From an actinobacterium acAMD-2 (GTDB taxonomy: Bacteria; Actinomycetota; Actinomycetes; UBA12327), in contig JNSE01000033.1 of NCBI GenBank assembly GCA_000754455.1, forward strand, positions 20,012-84,011: DNA of 64,000 bases. The letters are read 5' to 3'. Of this stretch, positions 3,699-64,000 are shown one piece after another. Every line of letters starts with the position of its first letter. Position 1 is the first letter of the stretch. A model generated the notes under the pieces. The model did no database searches. It saw nothing but the letters and a program-made list of their open reading frames with translations, and was not told the DNA's origin. The position numbers were made by a program, and so were the translations under genes.

Positions 3699-5540
3699 TT
3701 AGGACCAGATCGTGAGCGGACGGAAAGCTTCGTCCGGCATGGTTCCTTCGAGGTCGTAGTGACGCAACATCAGATCACGCATGGTGAGCGACTTGATCTG
3801 CGCTAGTTCCTCGGAATCAAACTGATCGTTCTCGTACCAGAATCGATCGGCGGCACGAGTACGACGCAATTCCTCGGACAGGATGTTTTGCATGGTTCGG
3901 CCGACCGCTGACCCCTCAACATGGGGTTCGGCGAGCAAACCAACCATGGGATCAATCGAATCCGCTCGGCGATATACCTCGCGCACCGCTTCAGCGCGAG
4001 CGAGTTCATCGTGCGTTGGATTGGCTGGATCAACAGCGGTAAAGCGCAAGAATGTCTCAATGGGTGTGCGGCGCTCGAGCTTCTTGCCCGCATCAATGAG
4101 TGCGCGCTTTTCCTTTTCACTGATGGTGTCTGCCTGTGCTTCGGAGTCCCACGGGCCTTCGTCGCCAAATTCTCCGTAGGCCATGCGCACGACGTGATAC
4201 GGCGGCAATCCGTTATCGCGGCCACGCGCCAGGTCTAGCGTGAACAAGTCGGTGCCACCACTGACAAAAGCAATGTCATGGATCGCGGTGTGATAAACCA
4301 AGCCCACATCATGGGCTTGCGTGGCCAACATCCCGCGCACCACGTGCTCGGGTGTGCCGCCCGCCAAGGCAATGTGCCCCAATGGCGAAATCGCATTGTT
4401 GACTTGACCAACATTGGGCAACGTTCCATCTTCGGGCATCGCTGGGTGACCGCTGTGCAAGGACAAAGCACCGGATGCATCTCGCGGTGCATAGGGATGC
4501 AATGCCGAGTGCCCAAAGCGCAAGGCCAGCGTGGCAAACGGAACGCTTGTCATGGCATTCGCCGTCTCGTCATAGCCTGAATAAGGGCCCAGCCGCTTAA
4601 CCATGTCGGGGCCAAAGACTGCGGGCAACCACTCATCAAAGAGCAGGTGCTGCCACACCGCGATCGTGCGTCGGCGGGCCTCTTGGAACAAGGTTTCGTC
4701 ATCCCAGTCGGGGTTAGCTTGCTCAAGTTGTGCCGCACGCCAGTTGTGCTCGCGGAAAAACAGAATCTGCATGAGCGTTAAACCGATGTTTTCCGAAGCT
4801 CGAGGATCTCCAGCGGTGACAACTTCGGTGGCGGGCAAGCGCGAGAACGAACTGTCCACCTTCAGGCCTGTTGTGGCCCGACTTGCCGGCAAGTTCTCGA
4901 CATCAAATTCCTTCTTGACCGGGCCAAACTCGGTGCGATACATGGCTTCGCCCACGTAATGCTCAGCCTTGAGGCGACCACCAGCAAATTCACGAAGGGC
5001 TTCATGTGTTTCCGCTTCTGGGCCATAGACCTGTGTCAGATCCAAATAACCACTGGCCAATGTTCCTGGGTGGAACACGCCATCGACGAAATCACCGGTA
5101 CTTGGCTTGAAGGGCAAGCCGCATGGCGTGCCATCGAGCAGTCGGTTTTGTCCGCGGAAGGTGGCGATCGGGTCTTCGGGGTCTAACACCCACACGAATT
5201 GATAGGGCGAGTCAGGAGTAACAAAGCTCTTGTTGTTGTCGATCCAGTGGCCATAAAAATAGTTGTCTTCTTTGTCGTGATTGAGGAACTGGCCAAAAAG
5301 CACCGCGATCATGTTGATGTTGGGGCGTTCCCGCTCGGTGAGGACATCCTGTAGTCCATACAAGCGACGACTAATCGTGCGCTCATTCCCGCGATCGTGG
5401 GGGCGGCGGATGCCGTCAGCGTACGAAAAACCCTCAGGCCCACGGCTCATCACGCCTGGAGCGCTGCCTAAGGCTGGTTGAGCGAGGTTATTCCCGGTGC
5501 CATCCAAGGAACGATATTCAGTAGCGGTCTTGGATGGCAC
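3699..5540 (-). CDS. animal-type haem peroxidase (peroxidase-cyclooxygenase superfamily) protein
   Basis: 613 aa with YRSLDGTGNNL at the N-terminus, distal-site FGQFLNHD and proximal-site RFGHSALHP. GTG start at 5540 with AAGGAG 7 nt upstream. Confidence 0.8.
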   Translation of the reverse strand: MPSKTATEYRSLDGTGNNLAQPALGSAPGVMSRGPEGFSYADGIRRPHDRGNERTISRRLYGLQDVLTERERPNINMIAVLFGQFLNHDKEDNYFYGHWIDNNKSFVTPDSPYQFVWVLDPEDPIATFRGQNRLLDGTPCGLPFKPSTGDFVDGVFHPGTLASGYLDLTQVYGPEAETHEALREFAGGRLKAEHYVGEAMYRTEFGPVKKEFDVENLPASRATTGLKVDSSFSRLPATEVVTAGDPRASENIGLTLMQILFFREHNWRAAQLEQANPDWDDETLFQEARRRTIAVWQHLLFDEWLPAVFGPDMVKRLGPYSGYDETANAMTSVPFATLALRFGHSALHPYAPRDASGALSLHSGHPAMPEDGTLPNVGQVNNAISPLGHIALAGGTPEHVVRGMLATQAHDVGLVYHTAIHDIAFVSGGTDLFTLDLARGRDNGLPPYHVVRMAYGEFGDEGPWDSEAQADTISEKEKRALIDAGKKLERRTPIETFLRFTAVDPANPTHDELARAEAVREVYRRADSIDPMVGLLAEPHVEGSAVGRTMQNILSEELRRTRAADRFWYENDQFDSEELAQIKSLTMRDLMLRHYDLEGTMPDEAFRPLTIWS

Positions 5541-5552
5541 AAAAAACTCCTT

Positions 5553-5699
5553 TTAACGAAGGTCTGGTGATCCCGTGGGTTCATCAGCAAACGACGTGGC
5601 ATCTGTCCACAACGTGTCATAGGCGCGCGAGCGACTAAATTGTTGATAAATCCATGCGAATAATGCGAAAAGACTAATCAGTGCGAGAAACTTCCGCAA
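5553..5699 (-). CDS. small hypothetical membrane protein (48 aa, not in the ORF track)
   Basis: Hand translation gives MRKFLALISLFALFAWIYQQFSRSRAYDTLWTDATSFADEPTGSPDLR. TTG start with GAAGGAGG 6 nt upstream. Its TAA stop abuts the RBS of the peroxidase gene. The segment is AT-rich. Confidence 0.35.
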   Translation of the reverse strand: MRKFLALISLFALFAWIYQQFSRSRAYDTLWTDATSFADEPTGSPDLR

Positions 5700-5732
5700 G
5701 ATATGCCTCCTTCACTTCAACTGATCAAACAC

Positions 5733-5809
5733 TGGTGGGCCTAGGAGGACTTGAACCTCCGACCTCTTCCTTATCAGGGAAGCGCTCTAACCGTCTGAGC
5801 TATAGGCCC
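5733..5809 (-). tRNA. tRNA-Ile (anticodon GAT), CCA encoded
   Basis: Reverse complement GGGCCTATAGCTCAGACGGTTAGAGCGCTTCCCTGATAAGGAAGAGGTCGGAGGTTCAAGTCCTCCTAGGCCCACCA. Anticodon loop is CTGATAA. Confidence 0.9.
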
Positions 5810-5856
5810 GAATGCACGCAAAATCTATCCCACGCCCACAACGGTGGCGTCAGGGG

Positions 5857-6246
5857 CTAGTCCTGGACTAAATCCATTTGTAAACCACCAACGAAATATG
5901 CCGCCAGGTTGTAAAAAGTTGCCAGCAACGCACTCAGTGCTGTCGCCAAGACGACTTGAACAACGGCCACTGCGCCTGCAAGGGTCATGACCTGTCCAAA
6001 ACCAAAGAGTGATTGTGGATCAACACCGCCGCCAAACACTTCGGTCGAGGTCCGGCCTACTGAATCAAAGACCCCGGCTTGGTTAAACAGCAACCACAAC
6101 AAGGCGATGGCTATCACGATCGCTAGGGCGATACCCACCGAGAAAATGAACGCCACCTTGGCCACAGACCAGGGATCGATGCGCTTCAACCGCAATTGAG
6201 CTCGACGAGCACCCGTCGAACCGTCAGCTCCGGTTGCCGAACTCAC
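5857..6246 (-). CDS. DUF3566-like membrane protein (Rv0007-type)
   Basis: 129 aa with [20 protein letters not shown] and two TM segments. It sits immediately downstream of gyrA with a 4-nt overlap, as in other actinobacteria. Confidence 0.7.
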
Positions 6247-8786
6247 GAAGTCGTACCCGCATCTGATGCTTCGGTGGTTTCATCTGCCGACACCGTGGCT
6301 TCATCACCCTCTAGCTCGTCATCAACATCATCGGATTCGGCATTACGAGCGATGCCAAGCACCACATCACCTTCTACCAAGTTCATGTAACGAACGCCCA
6401 TGGTGTCGCGACTCGTCGGATTGACCTCATCCACACGTGAGCGGATAACGCCACCATTGGATGTAACGGCAAGAACTTCATCCGTGGCATCCACCACCAA
6501 TGCACCGGCCAACGCGCCTCGAGCATCCACCAGCTTCATGGCCTTAATGCCCAGGCCCGAACGGTTTTGCACCCGGTACTGCTCGACCGGAGTGCGCTTG
6601 GCAAAGCCACCATCAGTGACGGTAAAGACGAACGCTCCTTCGGTCACCACTGACATCGACAGCAGCGCGTCACCAGCACGGAACTTCATTCCGGTCACAC
6701 CCGCGGTAGCCCGGCCCATCGGACGCAGTTGCGCGTCGTCGGCGGTAAAGCGAACAGACATTCCCTTGCGAGAAACCAAGAGCAGGTCGTCACTCGGCGA
6801 GACCAATTCGGCCCCAATGACTTCATCATCTTCTTGCAGGTTGATGGCAATCAAGCCCCGCGAACGATTGGAGTCGTACTCCTCCAACTTGGTCTTCTTG
6901 ACCTTGCCGTTCTTCGTCGCCAGCACCAGATACGGCGCCTGGCCATAGTCGCGCAAGGTCAATACCTGAGCAATGGATTCATCGGGTTGGAACTCCAGCA
7001 GGTTCGCCACGTGTTGACCACGCGCATCGCGACCAGCTTCTGGCAATTCATAGGACTTCGCGCGATAAACGCGACCACGGTTGGTAAAGAACAGCAACCA
7101 ATGATGTGTCGTCGTGGTGAAGAAGTGCTCGACGATGTCGTCTTGCTTCAACGCCGCACCGCGCACGCCCTTGCCGCCACGCTTTTGCGAGCGATAGAGG
7201 TCAACCTTGGTGCGCTTGGCGTACCCGCCACGCGTAATGGTGACGACCACATCCTCTTCGGCGATAAGGTCTTCGGCGCGCATCTCGCCTTCAGCAGCAA
7301 CAAAGCCGGTCCGGCGCTCATCGCCGTACTTGTCAACGACCTCGGCCAACTCTTCGCTGACGATGTCGCGCTGACGCTGCGGGCTTGCCAAGATCGCGTT
7401 CAACTCAGCGATCTCGCGCTCAATTTCGGCTGCTTCATCGATGATCTTTTGACGCTCAAGGGCTGCCAATCGGCGCAACTGCATGTCCAGAATGGCGGTG
7501 GCCTGAATGTCATCAATGTCGAGCAGTTCAATCAGGCCGTTGCGTGCAATTTCGACGCTCTCACTGCGACGAATTAACGCAATAACGGCATCAAGTGCAT
7601 CTAGTGCCTTGAGGTAGGCCCGCAAAATATGAGCGCGCTCTTCCTTCTTGCGCAACCGGTACTTGGTGCGACGAACAATGACTTCAATTTGGTGAACGAT
7701 GTAGTGCGTGACAAATTCGTCCAAGCGCAACGTACGCGGAACGCCATCAACCAATGCCAACATGTTGGCACCAAAGGTGTCCTGCAGTTGAGTGTGCTTG
7801 TACAAGTTGTTCAAGACCACTTTGGCCACAGCATCACGCTTGAGCACGATCACCAAACGTTGGCCCAGGCGTTCGTTACCTTCGTCTCGCACATCGGCGA
7901 TTCCGGCAACGCGTCCTTCTTTGACCAAGTCTGCAATCTTCAGGGCAAGGTTGTCCGGGTTGACCTGATAGGGGAGTTCACTGACCACCAAGCACGTGCG
8001 GTTGTTGATTTCCTCCACTTCGACAACAGCGCGCATCGTGATCGAGCCACGTCCAGTGCGGTAAGCATCTTCAATGCCAGCGCGGCCAACAATGAGCCCA
8101 CGCGTGGGAAAGTCTGGTCCCTTGACTCGCTCAAGCATGGCTTCCAAGAGCTCATCACTTGAAGCGTCGGGGTTCTGCAATGCCCACTGAACGCCACTGG
8201 CGACTTCCGTCAGGTTGTGCGGCGGAATGTTGGTCGCCATTCCCACAGCGATACCCGAGCTGCCATTGACGAGCAAGTTCGGAAAGCGGCTGGGAAGTAC
8301 GTCGGGTTCTTGTGCTCGGCCGTCGTAGTTCGGCGAGAAATCAACGGTGTCTTCGTCAATGTCGCGCATGGCCTCCATGGCCAGCGGAGCAAGTCGACAT
8401 TCGGTGTAACGCATTGCCGCGGCGGGGTCGTTACCGGGCGAACCAAAGTTGCCGTTGCCGTCAACTAACGGATAGCGCAACGACCACGACTGAGCCAAAC
8501 GAACGAGTGCGTCATAGATAGCGCTGTCACCGTGCGGGTGGTACTGACCCATGACGTCACCCACGACACGCGAACACTTGGAGTATCCGCGATCCGGTCG
8601 ATAGCCGCCATCAAACATCGCGTAGAGCACGCGGCGGTGCACCGGCTTGAGGCCGTCGCGAACGTCGGGCAAAGCACGACCGACGATCACACTCATCGCG
8701 TAGTCCAAGTAGGACCGCTGCATCTCTACTTCGAGATCAACCGGTTCTACGCGCGAAATCGGCGAATCAGTGGGGGTCTGCGTCAC
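6243..8786 (-). CDS. gyrA: DNA gyrase subunit A
   Basis: 847 aa with [14 protein letters not shown], active-site AAAMRYTE and C-terminal beta-pinwheel repeats. Confidence 0.97.
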
Positions 8787-8828
8787 GTCTGTTTTCCTTT
8801 CGGGAGGTCATCGATGTGTAGGACTGGC

Positions 8829-10916
<2,088 letters not shown>

Positions 10917-56521: not shown

Positions 56522-56614
56522 GGAGGCGTCGCCTAGTCCGGTCTATGGCGCCGCACTGCTAATGCGGTTTGGGTTTATCGCCCATCGAGAGTTCAAATCT
56601 CTCCGCCTCCGCCA
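56522..56614 (+). tRNA. tRNA-Ser (anticodon GCT), CCA encoded
   Basis: GGAGGCG acceptor stem, anticodon loop CTGCTAA, long variable arm, T-arm GAGAGTTCAAATCTCTC and 3' CGCCTCCGCCA. Confidence 0.9.
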
Positions 56615-56867: not shown

Positions 56868-56940
56868 GCGCCTGTAGCTCAACGGATAGAGCATCTGACT
56901 ACGGATCAGAAGGTTTGGGGTTCGAATCCCTACAGGCGCA
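56868..56940 (+). tRNA. tRNA-Arg (anticodon ACG)
   Basis: GCGCCTGTAGCTCAACGGATAGAGCATCTGACTACGGATCAGAAGGTTTGGGGTTCGAATCCCTACAGGCGCA. Anticodon loop is CTACGGA. CCA is not encoded. Confidence 0.9.
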
Positions 56941-56956
56941 CTCTTCATTCCACGGA

Positions 56957-57911: not shown

Positions 57912-58712
57912 ATGACCACAACTGCTAACACGCACACCTCACGTCAACGCGACATTGTTCGACAACTGTCCGTGCTGGTGAGTGTGGTCATTGCTGTTGT
58001 GGTGTCATTCTTGGGATCTGGTGCTGTGGTTGGCACGCCGGTGAGTGAAGTGGCCAATGGAGTCCTTGATAGTGATGCCACCTTGGTCGCTCCAGGTGGT
58101 GCCGCCTTCATTATTTGGGGTGTTATCTACACCGGCCTCCTTCTGTTGGGTATCAACCAACTCATGCCGTGGCGCGCTCAGGATTCCCGTCAGCGTCGCG
58201 CGGGTTGGCTAATTGTTGCTTCGGCGCTGTTGAACGCCGCGTGGATCGCTGCCGTTCAGTTGGCGTGGCTCGTTGCCAGTGTGCTGCTCTTGGTGGCCCT
58301 GGTGGCAGTGCTTGTTTTGATCCTCGCTCGACTTAACGAGCAACCTGCTACCACGCGTTACGAACGCGTCGTGATTGACGGAACTCTTGGTCTATACCTG
58401 GGATGGGCGTGCATCGCCACGGTTGCCAACTCGGCTGCCGCGGGGATTAGCGTGGGAATCGATGCGCTGGGCACTCTCGCAACTTCGTTGGCCGTGGTTG
58501 TCTTGGTTGTCGCAGCCGTCGTGGGGATTGTGTTAGCGATTGGTTTAAAGGGCCGCATTGCACCGGCTATTGGTTTGGCGTGGGGTTTGGCGTGGGTAGC
58601 AGTTGAACGCGCTAGCGGAATTCCCGAATCAACAGTGGTCGCTGTCTTCGCAGCTCTGGCAGCAGTGGTGACTGTGGTTGCTGCCGTGACTGTGCGTGCT
58701 CGAAGGAGCTAG
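57912..58712 (+). CDS. polytopic membrane protein, possibly TspO/MBR-related
   Basis: ATG at 57912 has GGAGG upstream. There are about 7 hydrophobic segments and Trp-rich loops (FIIWGVIYTGLL, LNAAWIAAVQLAWL). The family call is tentative. Confidence 0.4.
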   Translation: MTTTANTHTSRQRDIVRQLSVLVSVVIAVVVSFLGSGAVVGTPVSEVANGVLDSDATLVAPGGAAFIIWGVIYTGLLLLGINQLMPWRAQDSRQRRAGWLIVASALLNAAWIAAVQLAWLVASVLLLVALVAVLVLILARLNEQPATTRYERVVIDGTLGLYLGWACIATVANSAAAGISVGIDALGTLATSLAVVVLVVAAVVGIVLAIGLKGRIAPAIGLAWGLAWVAVERASGIPESTVVAVFAALAAVVTVVAAVTVRARRS

Positions 58713-58739
58713 CGTAAAGGGGATTGGCCCGGCCGCGAA

Positions 58740-59060
58740 CTACTGAGCGAGTCGAGCGGTGGGCTCCGAAAAGATGTCCAACAGTTCACTGACCTTGTGG
58801 CCGGCTTCGACCGGGTGGCGGAATTTCAAACTGTCGTGCAGTTCGTAGTGGTTTCGGCGACCGATTTTTGTCTTGGTGACATAACCGTCGGCTTCTAGGT
58901 CAGACAAGATCGCCTGGGCAGCTCGCTCGGTAATGCCAACGACCTCGGCAATATCGCGGATCCGTGCGTCTGGGTGGCTATTGAGGTAGATGATCGCGTG
59001 GCCATGGTTGGTCAAAAACGTCCATTGGCGTGAACTGCGCGACGATGGGGCCTCAGTCAT
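58740..59060 (-). CDS. winged helix-turn-helix transcriptional regulator (ArsR/MarR-like)
   Basis: 106 aa with IRDIAEVVGITERAAQAILSDLEADGYVTKTKIGRRNHYEL. It is divergent from the 59485 cluster. Confidence 0.65.
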   Translation of the reverse strand: MTEAPSSRSSRQWTFLTNHGHAIIYLNSHPDARIRDIAEVVGITERAAQAILSDLEADGYVTKTKIGRRNHYELHDSLKFRHPVEAGHKVSELLDIFSEPTARLAQ

Positions 59061-59484
59061 ATGACAACCCTACCTCGTAACCGGACAATCTAATCAGCAT
59101 TTTTATTGCAGGTAATAGTTGGCAGGAAGTCAACTTCATCACGGCAACTTCACCTGTCTCATGCACGCCGATTGGACTTGGCTGGTGCGTTCAACTTCAG
59201 CATGTGCGCTCGCGGTCGATTGGTCCGTGGAGTGACCCGAGCTATACCTAAAGCGTGGTGACAACGGTGTAACTCAACCTTTCGGTGGATGCTGTTTCAC
59301 CGTTTGGCTAGTTGATGGCTACAACCGTTCGTTTTAGTTAAAGATGTCTAAAGGTGCTATCGCCTTTGTCCGACTGTGCGATTACGCAGACCTGTATTTC
59401 TTGATGTAGTTGGCATGTCCGCATCCGTGGACACACAACTGTCACTAATCCTCTAGGGCTAGTGCACACATCAAGGAGAAAACA

Positions 59485-59952
59485 ATGGAGTTCGCAAAGA
59501 CCAAGCGTGGCACCTTGCTCGTCGCTTCACTCGCAACCGCCCTTCTCGTCGGCGGCGGCGTTGCATTCGCATACTGGACCACCACTGGTTCGGGTACTGG
59601 TTCGGCCGCAGCTGGCGACAGCAGCCCCGTCGACGTTACTCAGACCAACACCGTGACCGGTTTGTACCCCGGAGGTCCTGCACAGGACATCGACCTGAAC
59701 ATTGACAACAGCAACGATGCTGATCAGTACCTGGCCAAGGTTACCGTTTCTGTTTCTAGCACCTCTAACGCTGGCTGCACCGCCGCTGACTTCACCGTCA
59801 CCGACGCCACCATCGGCGCTGAGGTTCCTTCTGGCTCCACAAACGCCTACGCCGGCTCCGACACTGGTGCCAGCATCAAGATGAACAACGCTGCCACCAG
59901 CCAGGACGCTTGCAAGAACGCCACGATCAACCTCGCGTTCAACGCCAGCTGA
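59485..59952 (+). CDS. small exported protein with SipW/TasA-class-like leader and two-Cys beta-rich domain (hypothetical)
   Basis: 155 aa with AAGGAG 7 nt upstream. Leader KTKRGTLLVASLATALLVGGGVAFAYWTTTGSGTGSA. Mature part has LYPGG...NIDNSN...GC...SQDACKNATINLAFNAS. The coding call is solid. The function is inference. Confidence 0.8.
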   Translation: MEFAKTKRGTLLVASLATALLVGGGVAFAYWTTTGSGTGSAAAGDSSPVDVTQTNTVTGLYPGGPAQDIDLNIDNSNDADQYLAKVTVSVSSTSNAGCTAADFTVTDATIGAEVPSGSTNAYAGSDTGASIKMNNAATSQDACKNATINLAFNAS

Positions 59953-59994
59953 TCTGTTCTTCCGAAGTAATAGCAAAGCCCTAGAGGAGAAGTA

Positions 59995-60963
59995 ATGAAC
60001 AAGCCCAACAAGCTTCAGGTCGGCCGTGCGCCGCTTGAACTTGTTGGGCTTGTTCTACTCGCTGGGGTTTTCGTCCTGTTAGCCGTTATCTCAACCGCCA
60101 ACCGTGGTGGAAATAACGACGGCACGATCGCTCTGCCGCCGTCCGCAGTTGAGCCGACGCAGAGCATTGATGATCCACTGGCGGACCCCGTTAAGCGGTC
60201 GACCGTCAAGGTGGCCGGCACCCCTGTAGAAGTGGGTGTCAGCACCGGTGGTGGATCAGGAACAGCAGAAACCGGTGGCGACGAATTGATTGCTACCGGC
60301 CCTGATGGACAGCCACTTCCAAAGAACCCAGCTCTTGAGCCAGGGGACGCAGTTACTTTGCGCTTTGGTGGGTTTGCTCCGCAGGCCAGCGTGGGAGTTG
60401 TGCTTCGCTCGACTCCACGCAACCTTGGTTCGATTCTTGCTGACAACGACGGAGCTGTGACCTACAGCTTCACCGTTCCGGCAGACCTTGAGCCAGGTCG
60501 TCACACCGTGACATTCACCGGCAATGCCACGGATCTTTCTACCGCTTCGTCGTCACGCATTTCTGCAGCGACTGTTTCAAATGGCGTTAACACCGTGGTG
60601 TTTGACTTCACCAACTCTGTTGACGTCATTGATTTGACGCTGAGCTCGACGGTGAGTGGTCCGCTCCTGCCGGGTGTTTCCCGGACCCTCTTGGTGACGG
60701 TGAACAACCCCAACCCCTACCCCGCCAACCTGTACCGGGTTGACGTGGAAGTGGGAACCCCCGACGTGGCTGGCTGCCAGGCTGACTGGGTCAGTGCCGG
60801 TAATTACCTGTACTCATCCGGCCCCCAGCAGGTGATCCCAGCCAATTCAAGTATTTCGGTCGAATTGCCGATCCAACTACTGGATCTGTCTTCGACGGAT
60901 CAAAGTGCTTGCCGGGGCGCGACTTTCCCATTAACGCTGTTTGGACAAGGAGTGGGCGACTAA
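59995..60963 (+). CDS. membrane-anchored protein; C-terminal domain paralogous to the 59485 protein (hypothetical)
   Basis: 322 aa with GAGGAG upstream and an N-terminal TM anchor (LVGLVLLAGVFVLLAVI). A central Ig-like segment (EPGRHTVTFTG) is followed by the C-terminal LLPG...VNNPN...GC...DQSACRGATFPLTLF. Confidence 0.8.
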   Translation: MNKPNKLQVGRAPLELVGLVLLAGVFVLLAVISTANRGGNNDGTIALPPSAVEPTQSIDDPLADPVKRSTVKVAGTPVEVGVSTGGGSGTAETGGDELIATGPDGQPLPKNPALEPGDAVTLRFGGFAPQASVGVVLRSTPRNLGSILADNDGAVTYSFTVPADLEPGRHTVTFTGNATDLSTASSSRISAATVSNGVNTVVFDFTNSVDVIDLTLSSTVSGPLLPGVSRTLLVTVNNPNPYPANLYRVDVEVGTPDVAGCQADWVSAGNYLYSSGPQQVIPANSSISVELPIQLLDLSSTDQSACRGATFPLTLFGQGVGD

Positions 60964-63900
60964 TGCTTAATGCCACCCGCTCCATTTTCACCGGGATGTT
61001 CCGCCGTTTTGGCCTAGGAACCATCGCCGGTGTTGTTCTCGTTTTGGGAATGGGTGTCGCAGCATTTGCTTACTGGACCACTGTTGGTACTGGAGCAGGC
61101 TCTGCTTCAGCATCGGGATTGAATCCACCTACCAACGTTTCACTTGCTGTCGATGACAGCGCAGTGACGGTTTCGTTCACAGGCGTGACGCCGACGAACG
61201 GCACGTTGAGTGGGTACTACGTGCAGCGCAACAACGGCAGTGTCACCAGCAACGCCTGTGGCACAAACCCGGCTACCCCTAGTTCGCTCTTGTCGCTTAG
61301 CGCCACGAGCTGTGTTGACTCCAGTGTCCCTAATGGCACCTACACCTACACGGTCACCTCGGTCTTGAACACGTGGAAAGCAACGAGTGAGCCAAGCTCC
61401 TCTCTGGTCGTCACTGGTGACACTCATGCGCCGAGCCAAGTTGTCTCCATGACGAGCTCGAATGCACTTAAGACGGGTAACACGATTTACTTCCGCGCTG
61501 CTGCTGCTGGGTCTTTGACCTTGAGCGCAGCGGTGACCGATGGCATCTCCGGCCCAGCCTCAGCGACCTTCCCAGCGATCTCAACCACTGGTTGGACTCA
61601 CGCCAGTGAAACCGTTACCACTGGATCGGGCACCAACCCGAAGACCTTTACCTCGAGTACTTTCACGTGGAACGCGGATGCTGCCACGCCAAGTACCTAT
61701 GGAGTCGTTGGTAAAGACGTGGTGGGCAACCAAACCACGACAGACTTAACTTTCGTTGCAGACAACGCTGGGCCTACGGGCGGAACCTTGACCGTGAATG
61801 GCACGACGGGTACCTCAGATGGTGCGGTTAACGTCATCACGACGGGCGCTAACTTCACTGGATCCAAGACGGACTTTAGTGCTGACGCAGGTAGCGGTTA
61901 CCTGTCCACAACGCTTACTCGTGAAGCCTCCACCTCCGATACCTGCACGGCTTGGAGTTCAGCCACGACCATCTCTTCCATTAGCGAAGATGGTTCGGGA
62001 AGCGGCATGACGGTGACCGAGGACAGGTGTTACCGCTACACCTTGACGGGCACTGACAAGTTGGGGAATACCTCGATCCGCAGGGTCACCGTGTCATTTG
62101 TTGATACAACGAACCCGACGCAGGTGATGTCCATTTCCAATGCCACTAATGCGGTTTTAGTTGGCAGGAAGTTGTACTACAACAGCACAAGGGCTGGCGA
62201 GTTTGTCCTAAGTTCAACGGTTACGGACGGTTCGTCGGGGCCAGACAGGGTCATCTTTTCTGCCATTGCCACGGCTGGTTGGAACCACGATGTGGAGACT
62301 GTTACCACCGGCGTTGGCGTCAACCCCAAGACTTTTACGTCCTCTAGGTACTGGTGGACAGCAAATCCGTCTAACCCCAGTGGGCCAGTGCGCGAGATTA
62401 AGGCATACGACAAGGCTGGCAACGAGAAAAAGGATAATCTTGAAACAACGGTCGATAACGCTGGTCCGGCTGTTTCTGGTGCGTTGACGGTTAATGGTGC
62501 GGGTGGTTCTGCTGGTGGTACTACTTCGTACACCAACTCCTCGTTCTCGGGTTCGAAGACTGACTTCACGGATGCTGGTGCGGGTATTTCCACCAATGTT
62601 TTGACCCGTGAATTCGCCACGATCGCTGATGGTGTGTGTGCCAGCTTCGATCCAGCCACGGAGATTGCCAGTATTAGTGAGACCAGCCCGGCTGGTGGTT
62701 GTTACCGCTACACGTTGACTGCCACTGACTTGTTGGGCAACGTTTCGGTGCTCAAGACCACGGTCATGGTTGATCTCACGGCTCCTTCGTCGGTGGTTGT
62801 TTCTGAAACTGGTTCGGCTGGGTACCTGAGTGGTTCGACGTTGTATTTCCGTAGTGGTGTGTCTGGGTCGTTGACGTTGAGTGCTGCGGTTACGGATGCG
62901 TTCCCTGGTGCTGCTTCTGCCACGTTCCCGGCGATTTCGACCACGAACTGGACGCACAACGCTGAGACGATCACTTCTGGTTCGGGTTCTAACCCGGTTA
63001 CTTACACCTCGAGCAGTTTCTCGTGGACTTCTGCCGCTGTTGCTCCTTCGGGTACGCGCACGATCAGTGGTGCTGACAAGGCGGGTAACTCCACGAACGC
63101 CACCCCGATTTCCTTTGTCGCTGACGCTTCGGCTCCCACCGGTGGTGCGTTGACGGTTGCTGGCACGCCGGGTACTTCTGGTGGTGCCACGGTGGCTACG
63201 AACTCGGCGTTGTTCTCTGGTTCTTACACCGACTTCGATGCTGATGCTGGTTCTGGTTTTGCCTCGTCTGTGTTGGTGCGTGAGACGGCCACGTTGACCT
63301 CTGGTGCTTGTGGCGGCTTTGGTAACTCCTCAACGATCACCAGTATTTCTGAGTCGGCGTTGGCTACGGGTTGTTACCGCTACACCCTGACCGGTACTGA
63401 CAATGTGGGTAACACCTCGGTGTTGCGCACCATCGTCCAGGTCGATGTCACTGCTCCTACCGTTGTAGTCACCGCAAATGGTGCGAACTCTAGGCAGACT
63501 GGTTCGACGATTTATTACCGTGGCGACCTGGCTTCGTCGTTGACCCTTGGCGCCGCGGTTACTGATGCTGCTTCTGGTGCTGCCTCGGCCACGTTCCCAG
63601 CTGTTGCCACCACGGGTTGGACGCACAACGCTGAGACGATCTCGTCGGCTGCTTCGACCTCGGGCACGACTAAGACGTACAACTCGTCGAACTTCTCCTG
63701 GACCGCTAGCCCCTCTAACCCGGGTTCTTACACCGTGACCGGTACTGACGCTGCTGGTAACACGGGCACCAGTGCGGTGAGCTTCACCTCTGACACCACC
63801 GGTCCTACCGGCGGAACACTGACCGTTGATGGCGTTACCGCAACATCTGATGGCAAGGCCGTACGTGTTATTACTGATGAAGATGACAACTTCTCTGGTT

Positions 63901-64000
63901 CGAAAACTAACTACAGCGCTGATGCTGGCAGTGGTTACGCCTCGACCACGCTCACGCGTGAGGTGTCGACCAGTAGCTCGTGCCAAAGCTTTAGTTCGCT
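60963..64000 (+). CDS. giant repeat-rich surface protein, 5' partial (continues beyond the window); absent from the supplied ORF track
   Basis: Hand translation from the ATG at 60963 (TAATG overlap with the previous stop, AAGGAG upstream) shows no stop codon in 1012 codons to the window end. Leader GMGVAAFAYWTTVGTGAGSA, an FN3-like segment, then 224-codon modules. Confidence 0.85.
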   Translation, partial: MLNATRSIFTGMFRRFGLGTIAGVVLVLGMGVAAFAYWTTVGTGAGSASASGLNPPTNVSLAVDDSAVTVSFTGVTPTNGTLSGYYVQRNNGSVTSNACGTNPATPSSLLSLSATSCVDSSVPNGTYTYTVTSVLNTWKATSEPSSSLVVTGDTHAPSQVVSMTSSNALKTGNTIYFRAAAAGSLTLSAAVTDGISGPASATFPAISTTGWTHASETVTTGSGTNPKTFTSSTFTWNADAATPSTYGVVGKDVVGNQTTTDLTFVADNAGPTGGTLTVNGTTGTSDGAVNVITTGANFTGSKTDFSADAGSGYLSTTLTREASTSDTCTAWSSATTISSISEDGSGSGMTVTEDRCYRYTLTGTDKLGNTSIRRVTVSFVDTTNPTQVMSISNATNAVLVGRKLYYNSTRAGEFVLSSTVTDGSSGPDRVIFSAIATAGWNHDVETVTTGVGVNPKTFTSSRYWWTANPSNPSGPVREIKAYDKAGNEKKDNLETTVDNAGPAVSGALTVNGAGGSAGGTTSYTNSSFSGSKTDFTDAGAGISTNVLTREFATIADGVCASFDPATEIASISETSPAGGCYRYTLTATDLLGNVSVLKTTVMVDLTAPSSVVVSETGSAGYLSGSTLYFRSGVSGSLTLSAAVTDAFPGAASATFPAISTTNWTHNAETITSGSGSNPVTYTSSSFSWTSAAVAPSGTRTISGADKAGNSTNATPISFVADASAPTGGALTVAGTPGTSGGATVATNSALFSGSYTDFDADAGSGFASSVLVRETATLTSGACGGFGNSSTITSISESALATGCYRYTLTGTDNVGNTSVLRTIVQVDVTAPTVVVTANGANSRQTGSTIYYRGDLASSLTLGAAVTDAASGAASATFPAVATTGWTHNAETISSAASTSGTTKTYNSSNFSWTASPSNPGSYTVTGTDAAGNTGTSAVSFTSDTTGPTGGTLTVDGVTATSDGKAVRVITDEDDNFSGSKTNYSADAGSGYASTTLTREVSTSSSCQSFSS
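61419..64000 (+). repeat. tandem coding repeats of about 672 bp (about 3.8 copies in the window)
   Basis: The 14-mer TGTTACCGCTACAC recurs at 62028, 62700 and 63372, exactly 672 bp apart. Module starts (D-T-x-A/N-P) lie at 61419, 62103, 62772 and 63444. Confidence 0.9.

Follow-up and report, generated by a model that had tools for sequence, protein, structure and literature searches.

A leader-associated motif shared by two genes of a conserved Actinomycetota module, probably a surface fibre or adhesin system independent of sortase

The question raised by the locus

What is the use of a short peptide that two genes of one operon share just behind their hydrophobic N-termini, and what do these genes make together? 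The question comes from the right end of a 64,000-nucleotide stretch of contig JNSE01000033.1 from the actinobacterium acAMD-2 (the window in what follows). Three co-oriented genes, here gene 1, gene 2 and gene 3, stand there in a row, and the first and the third carry nearly the same 15 residues. The best explanation, to which we give a probability of about one half, is that the motif combines the end of a specialised Sec leader with the first dozen residues of the mature protein, and that it is a mark of the subunits that a conserved Actinomycetota module of three to four genes exports. This module probably encodes a surface system, a fibre or an adhesin, that works without sortase. The genes and the two copies of the motif are the following (aa, amino acids):

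59485..59952, plus strand: gene 1, an open reading frame (ORF) with the Shine-Dalgarno sequence AAGGAG; 155 aa, small exported protein, probable major subunit
59563..59607, plus strand: motif copy 1, AFAYWTTTGSGTGSA, gene 1 residues 27-41 (A27-F-A-Y-W-T-T-T-G-S-G-T-G-S-A41)
59995..60963, plus strand: gene 2, 322 aa; hydrophobic N-terminal segment, middle region and C-terminal domain
60963..64000, plus strand: gene 3, truncated by the end of the window; full length 1,733 aa, taken from contig L001
61062..61106, plus strand: motif copy 2, AFAYWTTVGTGAGSA, gene 3 residues 34-48 (A34-F-A-Y-W-T-T-V-G-T-G-A-G-S-A48)

A motif under selection

Both copies, read directly from the sequence, lie exactly at the coordinates and residue numbers first given for them by a model that saw the letters alone (the sequence-only reading). 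They also follow the pattern that it wrote, A-F-A-Y-W-T-T-x-G-x-G-x-G-S-A. To call the 15-residue motif 'identical', however, as it did, is too strong, as the three x positions differ and 12/15 residues agree. At the level of DNA, 32 of the 45 bases are the same. Five codons are identical, three differ non-synonymously and seven differ synonymously; the synonymous divergence that the same reading had reported is real and affects seven of the 12 conserved codons. This number of silent changes within codons that keep their residues argues for selection on the peptide itself.

Chance falls far short of explaining the match between the two genes. When the 15-mers of all six frames of the window are compared with the gene 1 motif, the best one after that of gene 3 has 7/15 identities, and regular-expression scans of the 64 kb found no motif outside genes 1 and 3. 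The shared motif is real, and it is under selection.

A module spread over Actinomycetota

The product of gene 1 begins with a leader (residues 1-29), continues with a segment rich in Gly, Ser and Thr (30-45) and has its beta-sandwich core, with the conserved Cys98 and Cys143, at 46-155; the protein ends in ...NLAFNAS. The core is modelled by AlphaFold as a beta-sandwich with a confidence score (pLDDT) above 90, and residues 1-45 have low confidence. The exact protein is on record as a hypothetical protein of "actinobacterium acAMD-2". Its family has no Pfam or NCBIfam model, the proteins of genes 1, 2 and 3 gave no meaningful match in Pfam and NCBIfam, and a sequence search of the PDB with the family profile returned nothing below E 0.4. 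The family is nevertheless a very large one. A word-indexed search found 270 homologues, all of about 150-165 aa and all unnamed or 'hypothetical protein' bar one (P0082 bears the Joint Genome Institute name 'ABC-type transporter Mla subunit MlaD', which looks like an annotation artefact). An exhaustive profile search brought the family to 6,042 cluster representatives (50% identity, E <= 1e-3), a lower bound, 2,585 of them at E <= 1e-10.

Conservation was followed in an alignment (A1) of 32 diverse homologues, down to about 42% identity. Residues A29, W31, G35, G39, P62, G63, C98, Q140, C143 and K144 are invariant in it, and A27, T32 and G37 are at least 90% conserved. The sequence-only reading had staked its proposal on the motif being kept in orthologues, and it is kept in them across Actinomycetota. 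In the core, Q140 and K144 are invariant besides the cysteine pair, and N75 and D102 nearly so, a set of residues that may recall the Lys-Asn/Asp isopeptide bonds of Gram-positive pilins.

A scan of loci with one genome per species gave 79 loci, nearly all from Actinomycetota, together with one from a Chloroflexi metagenome-assembled genome (MAG). A gene with both the motif and the core is found in 77/79, and the module is syntenic across these 77. A small motif protein comes first, followed by a motif-less beta-sandwich protein with a hydrophobic N-terminus, then often by a second small motif protein, and finally by a motif-bearing protein of 600-2,000 aa. Counts of the downstream genes over the 77 loci are lower bounds, as many contigs are short: a core-only, motif-less gene follows the gene 1 homologue in at least 54, an extra small motif gene is present in at least 37, and an ORF of at least 500 aa with an N-terminal A-x-A-[YF]-W followed by a Gly-rich stretch occurs in at least 55. 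Homologues and large syntenic proteins have N-termini related to motif copy 2, GALAYWTTQGTGSAS and AAWAYWSAGSVPGGNG among them. The motif of the large proteins is more variable between taxa (for example AWAYWSAGSVPGGNG), so that the near-identity of the two copies in the present genome lies at the high end.

Cultured carriers of the module include Angustibacter, Promicromonospora, Knoellia, Arthrobacter, Glaciihabitans and Cryobacterium. All-against-all clustering of the neighbours in the 79 loci found no conserved dedicated enzyme; response regulators, sensor kinases, ABC ATPases and pdxS recur, each in at most 10 loci. Two loci have unexpected labels. One (L002, CALQPL010000113.1, 4.6 kb), attributed to a Bifidobacterium breve MAG, holds a near-identical copy of the operon, with a gene 1 that is 88% identical and a gene 3 whose N-terminal leader and motif are the same as in the window; it is probably a mis-binned freshwater actinobacterial contig. 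The other is the Chloroflexi MAG fen_1042 (L037), with the module at 4414-8910 and a SipW-like peptidase about 3 kb downstream, a situation that results either from horizontal transfer or from a binning error.

The partners of gene 1

Gene 2 lacks the A-x-A-Y-W motif. Its C-terminal domain (104 residues, 212-315, bases 60628-60939) is homologous to the gene 1 core: BLASTP aligns the two proteins at E 6e-6 with both cysteines in register, and a hidden Markov model (HMM) of the core domain matches gene 2 at E 1.1e-6. The protein, which ends in ...GQGVGD, is a probable membrane-proximal partner or anchor.

The remainder of gene 3 is supplied by the public Logan contig L001, which matches the window without a difference over 7,089 bases and carries the gene at 4052-9253. 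The full-length protein consists of the motif-bearing leader, an FN3-like domain and then a series of about 225-aa repeats, seven in number, recognisable by their TTGWTH and CYRYTLTGTD motifs and each ending in a C-Y-R-Y-T-L-T-G-T-D-like sequence. Thr makes up 19% and Ser 15% of the residues, and there are 16 cysteines in all. The core-domain HMM found no gene-1-type domain in it, TRF found no tandem repeat at the level of its DNA, and Pfam gave sub-threshold matches only (Big_3_3 and GspA_SrpA_N). A homologue search with the first 200 residues returned six fragmentary matches only. The N-terminal hydrophobic segment is the only one in the protein; the full-length sequence, which ends in ...VYIRKR, has neither an LPXTG motif nor a C-terminal anchor. 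Gene 3 is a probable distal adhesin. The stop of gene 2 and the start of gene 3 overlap as TAATG (60961-60965), an arrangement suggesting that translation of the giant protein is coupled to that of the domain-only one.

Kinship with the SipW-cognate leaders

Is the leader of a known kind? The sole NCBIfam match of the gene 1 N-terminus is TIGR04089 (exp_by_SipW_III, 'alternate-type signal peptide domain-containing protein'), with E 0.023 and 14.8 bits, over positions 9-43 only of an HMM of 179 positions. Alignment with hhalign places the resemblance in the leader. The gene 1 family matches a single TIGR04089 protein at E 4.6e-6, in the leader and AYWT segment only, and it matches an alignment of 27 members at E 2.6e-6 (probability 88.7%), restricted to 41 leader columns. 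The mature domains are excluded from this match, those of gene 1 and TIGR04089 being not detectably homologous. Conversely, the HMM of the gene 1 leader matches 22/27 TIGR04089 proteins at E < 0.1 and none of the generic signal peptides among the 9,285 ORFs of 80 loci and the window, where a single TIGR04089 protein was matched outside the modules. The motif is not a generic leader, and the possibility raised by the sequence-only reading, that it might sit on many unrelated Sec proteins, is not what is seen.

The comparison is most direct in a Nocardioides MAG (L031), in which a gene 1 homologue follows directly after a verified canonical cluster. Upstream of the homologue, this cluster contains:

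L031 cluster: TIGR04089 protein (127.9 bits), with the leader ...GAGTLAYWTDTGTVSG
L031 cluster: archaeal-type (SipW-like) signal peptidase, TIGR02228
L031 cluster: Peptidase_M73/TIGR04088 protein, ...GATGTFAFWTDD...
L031 cluster: second SipW-like peptidase, TIGR02228

The TIGR04089 leader of this cluster, LLGGAGTLAYWTDTGTVSG, is comparable to that of gene 1, LVGGGVAFAYWTTTGSGTG. Both have a basic n-region, a hydrophobic stretch that ends Gly-rich and then [GA]-x-x-A-[YF]-W-[TS]. The leader pattern A-x-A-[YF]-W-[TS] is present and conserved in the gene 1 family, where, unlike in canonical leaders, an invariant G-x-G-x-G comes next. Canonical clusters lie between pdxS and pdxT-yebC-ruvCAB in Nocardioides-type genomes (L031 1960-5907; L081 8001-11286; L083 8001-10336). 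The AYWT module occupies the same pdxS...pdxT site in three further loci (L022, L071, L074), and in L031 the two stand next to each other. The stretch from pdxS to pdxT-yebC-ruvCAB, be it a true insertion site or not, varies between genomes.

The kinship that the alignments detect stops at the leader. The modelled TIGR04089 protein has the TasA fibre as its weak top fold match (8aur, E 0.016), with the archaeal bundling pili (ABP) third and none significant; to judge from the models, the two types of cargo appear to differ in fold. Against the camelysin-type protein of L031, hhalign gave the gene 1 family a probability of 6.7%, hence no evidence of a relationship beyond the leader. PF12389 (Peptidase_M73) did not match the window proteins at E <= 1, the controls scoring 27.6 bits (L031) and 33.3 bits (L063). 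A literature search for the NCBIfam leader names found no paper on the actinobacterial class.

On these alignments, the leader would be a divergent form of the SipW-cognate or 'alternate-type' class that NCBIfam already models. It would also be a mobile, cargo-independent element, because the motif is found on giants without the core domain and the leader on TIGR04089 proteins with non-homologous mature parts. The sequence-only reading had taken AFA for a plausible cleavage site and the YWTT-G-G-G behind it for a recognition or assembly element, perhaps a donor strand or a motif read by a peptidase. This proposal gains in part, the motif being kept in orthologues, non-generic and akin to the leaders of this class; the motif itself, as a variant of a class already modelled, is not new in kind.

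How the subunits might be assembled

The best explanation can be spelled out as a chain of events. Genes 1 and 3 would be exported by Sec, and a type I signal peptidase would cut their products after A-F-A, the enzyme being either a SipW-like archaeal-type peptidase encoded elsewhere or the housekeeping one. In the gene 1 family the signal peptidase I positions are fixed, with Ala at -3 in 90% or more and an invariant Ala at -1, and the W at +2 is invariant too. The A-x-A rule and the analogy of TasA (PMC9674648) put the predicted cuts at A29|Y30 in gene 1 (bases 59571/59572) and at A36|Y37 in gene 3 (bases 61070/61071). The new N-terminus, Y-W-T-T-x-G-x-G-x-G, would then attach the subunits to a gene-1-type domain, much as a donor strand does in TasA and, among archaea, in bundling pili, threads and tafi. 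Assembly may be polar: gene 2, which has the domain alone, would sit at the cell, gene 1, with element and domain, would repeat, and gene 3, with the N-terminal element alone and no other anchor, would form the tip. The distribution of the parts fits such a chain.

Precedents are found in systems with solved or modelled fibres. Residues 28-38 of TasA, right after the SipW cut, are its donor strand (PMC9674648), and the N-terminus of TapA resembles that of TasA (PMC9674648, PMC10151520). In the archaeal threads, the first seven residues past the signal-peptidase site are identical among homologues (PMC9715654), and tafi are modelled as a donor-strand chain of tip, adaptor, core and anchor (PMC11821415). 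As for the enzyme, archaeal ABP pili have no dedicated peptidase, and TasA-like fibres can use the general signal peptidase (PMC9245690).

A more specific picture can be offered, tentatively, as one that we hold to be less likely than not. Actinomycetota, even in streamlined freshwater lineages, might possess an undescribed pilus or fibre that needs neither sortase nor chaperone. The processed Y-W-T-T-G-x-G-x-G would become locked in the disulfide-bonded beta-sandwich of the following subunit, maybe covalently (Q140, K144, N75, D102), in the fixed order of a domain-only protein at the membrane, a repeating subunit with both elements and a giant at the tip.

Several results weigh against the best explanation. 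As to the leader, the curated threshold of TIGR04089 is far from reached (14.8 vs 60 bits). TIGR04088 (SipW-dependent-type signal peptide, a leader HMM of 34 positions with a cut-off of 19 bits) matched neither the full proteins at E <= 1 nor the N-terminal peptides at E <= 10, although the L031 positive controls reached 33.8 and 28.2 bits with it, and 127.9 bits with TIGR04089. The Asp that usually follows [FW]-[ST] in the class is replaced by Thr, Asn or Ser in the gene 1 family. As to the peptidase, a motif scan and phmmer found no SipW-like or any S26 enzyme in the window, and 75/79 loci have no SipW-like peptidase within 10 kb. The four that do (L031, where it is directly adjacent, L037, L063 and L075) are, by a rough estimate, several-fold more than expected for a gene of one or two copies. 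This is still far from the tight peptidase linkage of canonical SipW clusters; the AYWT module usually lacks the enzyme in its neighbourhood. As to attachment, the segment behind the predicted cut is Gly/Ser/Thr-rich with Y and W as its only hydrophobic residues, unlike the alternating hydrophobic residues of classical donor strands. Foldseek gave the gene 1 model no match in the PDB at E < 1e-3. Its top ranks were macroglobulin and arrestin-type sandwiches, non-significant and generically immunoglobulin-like (Ig-like), and neither TasA nor ABP was among the top 50 matches. A TasA-like fold is not claimable for gene 1 on matches of this sort. Finally, the uncharged stretch has a median of 20 residues in gene 1 leaders vs 19 in motif-less gene-2-type proteins, so that a cleaved leader and a membrane anchor are not told apart by length alone.

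Alternative explanations

This last point leads to the main rival, in which the hydrophobic segment is never cleaved. The proteins of genes 1 and 3 would be anchored in the membrane by their N-termini, and A-x-A-Y-W-T-T-G-x-G-x-G would lie next to the membrane as an aromatic belt with a glycine-rich hinge or a GxxxG-type contact, through which the three proteins associate at the membrane surface. We hold this to be unlikely, in spite of a number of features that it accommodates well. With about 20 uncharged residues, the stretch has membrane-spanning length and is no shorter than in gene-2-type proteins. Tyrosine and tryptophan are typical of the membrane interface, G35-x-x-x-G39 is invariant, and there is no dedicated peptidase nearby. 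An uncleaved N-terminus would also be the simplest way to explain how gene 3, which has no other anchor, keeps its product at the cell. The alanine pair speaks against this account: A27 is nearly invariant and A29 invariant, as the rule for signal peptidase I has it, and gene-2-type proteins have no such pair. A domain of 110 residues on a tether of 15 is, moreover, too short to pass the actinobacterial wall. In addition, the leader aligns specifically with TIGR04089 leaders, a class that includes the SipW-processed TasA (PMC9674648).

Another account retains the cut, made by ordinary signal peptidase, and denies the motif any later role. Conservation would stem from paralogous N-terminal modules and from the efficiency of export and cleavage, the Thr/Ser/Gly stretch being a flexible, possibly O-glycosylated linker. 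Thr/Ser/Gly-rich segments behind signal peptides are common as linkers and as O-mannosylation sites in Actinomycetota. Genes 1 and 2 are paralogues with one common domain, as are the extra small genes, and a dedicated peptidase is missing at most loci, both as this account would have it. We find it rather improbable all the same. A fixed spacing of glycines is not expected of a pure linker, and W31, G35 and G39 are still invariant at only 42% identity. The seven synonymous changes in 12 conserved codons point to selection on the peptide. Finally, the leader travels independently of its cargo, as the gene 3-type giants without the core and the TIGR04089 proteins testify.

Type IV pilin-like subunits, with a hydrophobic N-terminus kept as the filament core after a prepilin peptidase cut upstream of it, are very improbable, and a type IV pilin or class III signal peptide was rejected: K-R-G does stand right before the hydrophobic stretch of gene 1, and a Sulfolobus adhesive pilus came at Foldseek rank 5 (E 0.019, non-significant, TM-score 0.18), but neither the -1 Gly/Ala nor a +5 Glu is conserved in alignment A1 (KKR-F and KRR-F are common in homologues) and no prepilin peptidase or pilus ATPase was seen in related loci.

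Comparison with known fibre systems

If the motif does mark exported subunits, as in the best explanation, how does the module compare with fibres already known? A parallel in bacteria is the TasA-TapA-SipW operon of Bacillus subtilis, also a small operon of exported proteins with a common special leader, with a small major subunit and an accessory protein. By contrast, there is no sipW in the present operon or window and no Peptidase_M73 match, the predicted fold differs, and the third component is a repeat protein of 1,733 aa. Fibre formation by the present module is a prediction.

The archaeal bundling pili (AbpA/AbpB), the Sulfolobus threads (Saci_0406/0405) and the haloarchaeal tafi (TafA/C/E/F, with the peptidase TafD) are chaperone-free donor-strand filaments exported through signal peptidase I. 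They share with the module a conserved mature N-terminus and multi-subunit operons with tip, adaptor, core and anchor roles (PMC9715654, PMC11821415). The differences are that they belong to another domain of life and have no sequence similarity to the present proteins, that tafi use the Tat pathway, and that structures have been solved for the archaeal filaments and none for the actinobacterial module.

Sortase pili of the SpaA/B/C type follow a similar operon logic in Actinomycetota, with a major subunit, a minor or basal one and a large tip adhesin, and have Ig-like domains with conserved Cys, Lys and Asn residues. They differ in their anchoring: genes 1, 2 and 3 have no LPXTG or C-terminal sorting signal, for which a sortase-dependent pilin was rejected, and neither the modules nor any credible ORF of the window showed a sortase motif.

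Should the best explanation prove true, a very large unnamed family (at least 6,042 representatives at 50% identity) would become readable as subunits of an Actinomycetota surface system, a fibre or an adhesin, linked with the TasA/SipW manner of building extracellular fibres. The 'alternate' leader class would reach beyond what current HMMs detect, and would be missed by genome annotation as a result. Freshwater actinobacteria such as acAMD-2 would have a so far unrecognised way to attach or to make contact between cells. Experiments could start from the predicted cut site, from W31 and from the spacing of G-x-G-x-G.

Surroundings of the operon

One further gene lies upstream of the operon and is divergent from it:

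58740..59060, minus strand: helix-turn-helix (HTH) protein, 106 aa, an ORF

Precomputed Pfam matches in the window-identical contig, weak ones, are to MarR_2 and HTH_24, and the protein is a possible local regulator. A scan for promoters and terminators over 58700-61200 gave nothing over background. GC content is not deviant. About 2.5 kb upstream of the operon are two tRNA genes, tRNA-Ser(GCT) at 56522-56614 and tRNA-Arg(ACG) at 56868-56941; between them and the operon stand a gene for a CPT/AAA-like kinase, one for a multi-pass membrane protein of 282 aa and the small HTH gene.

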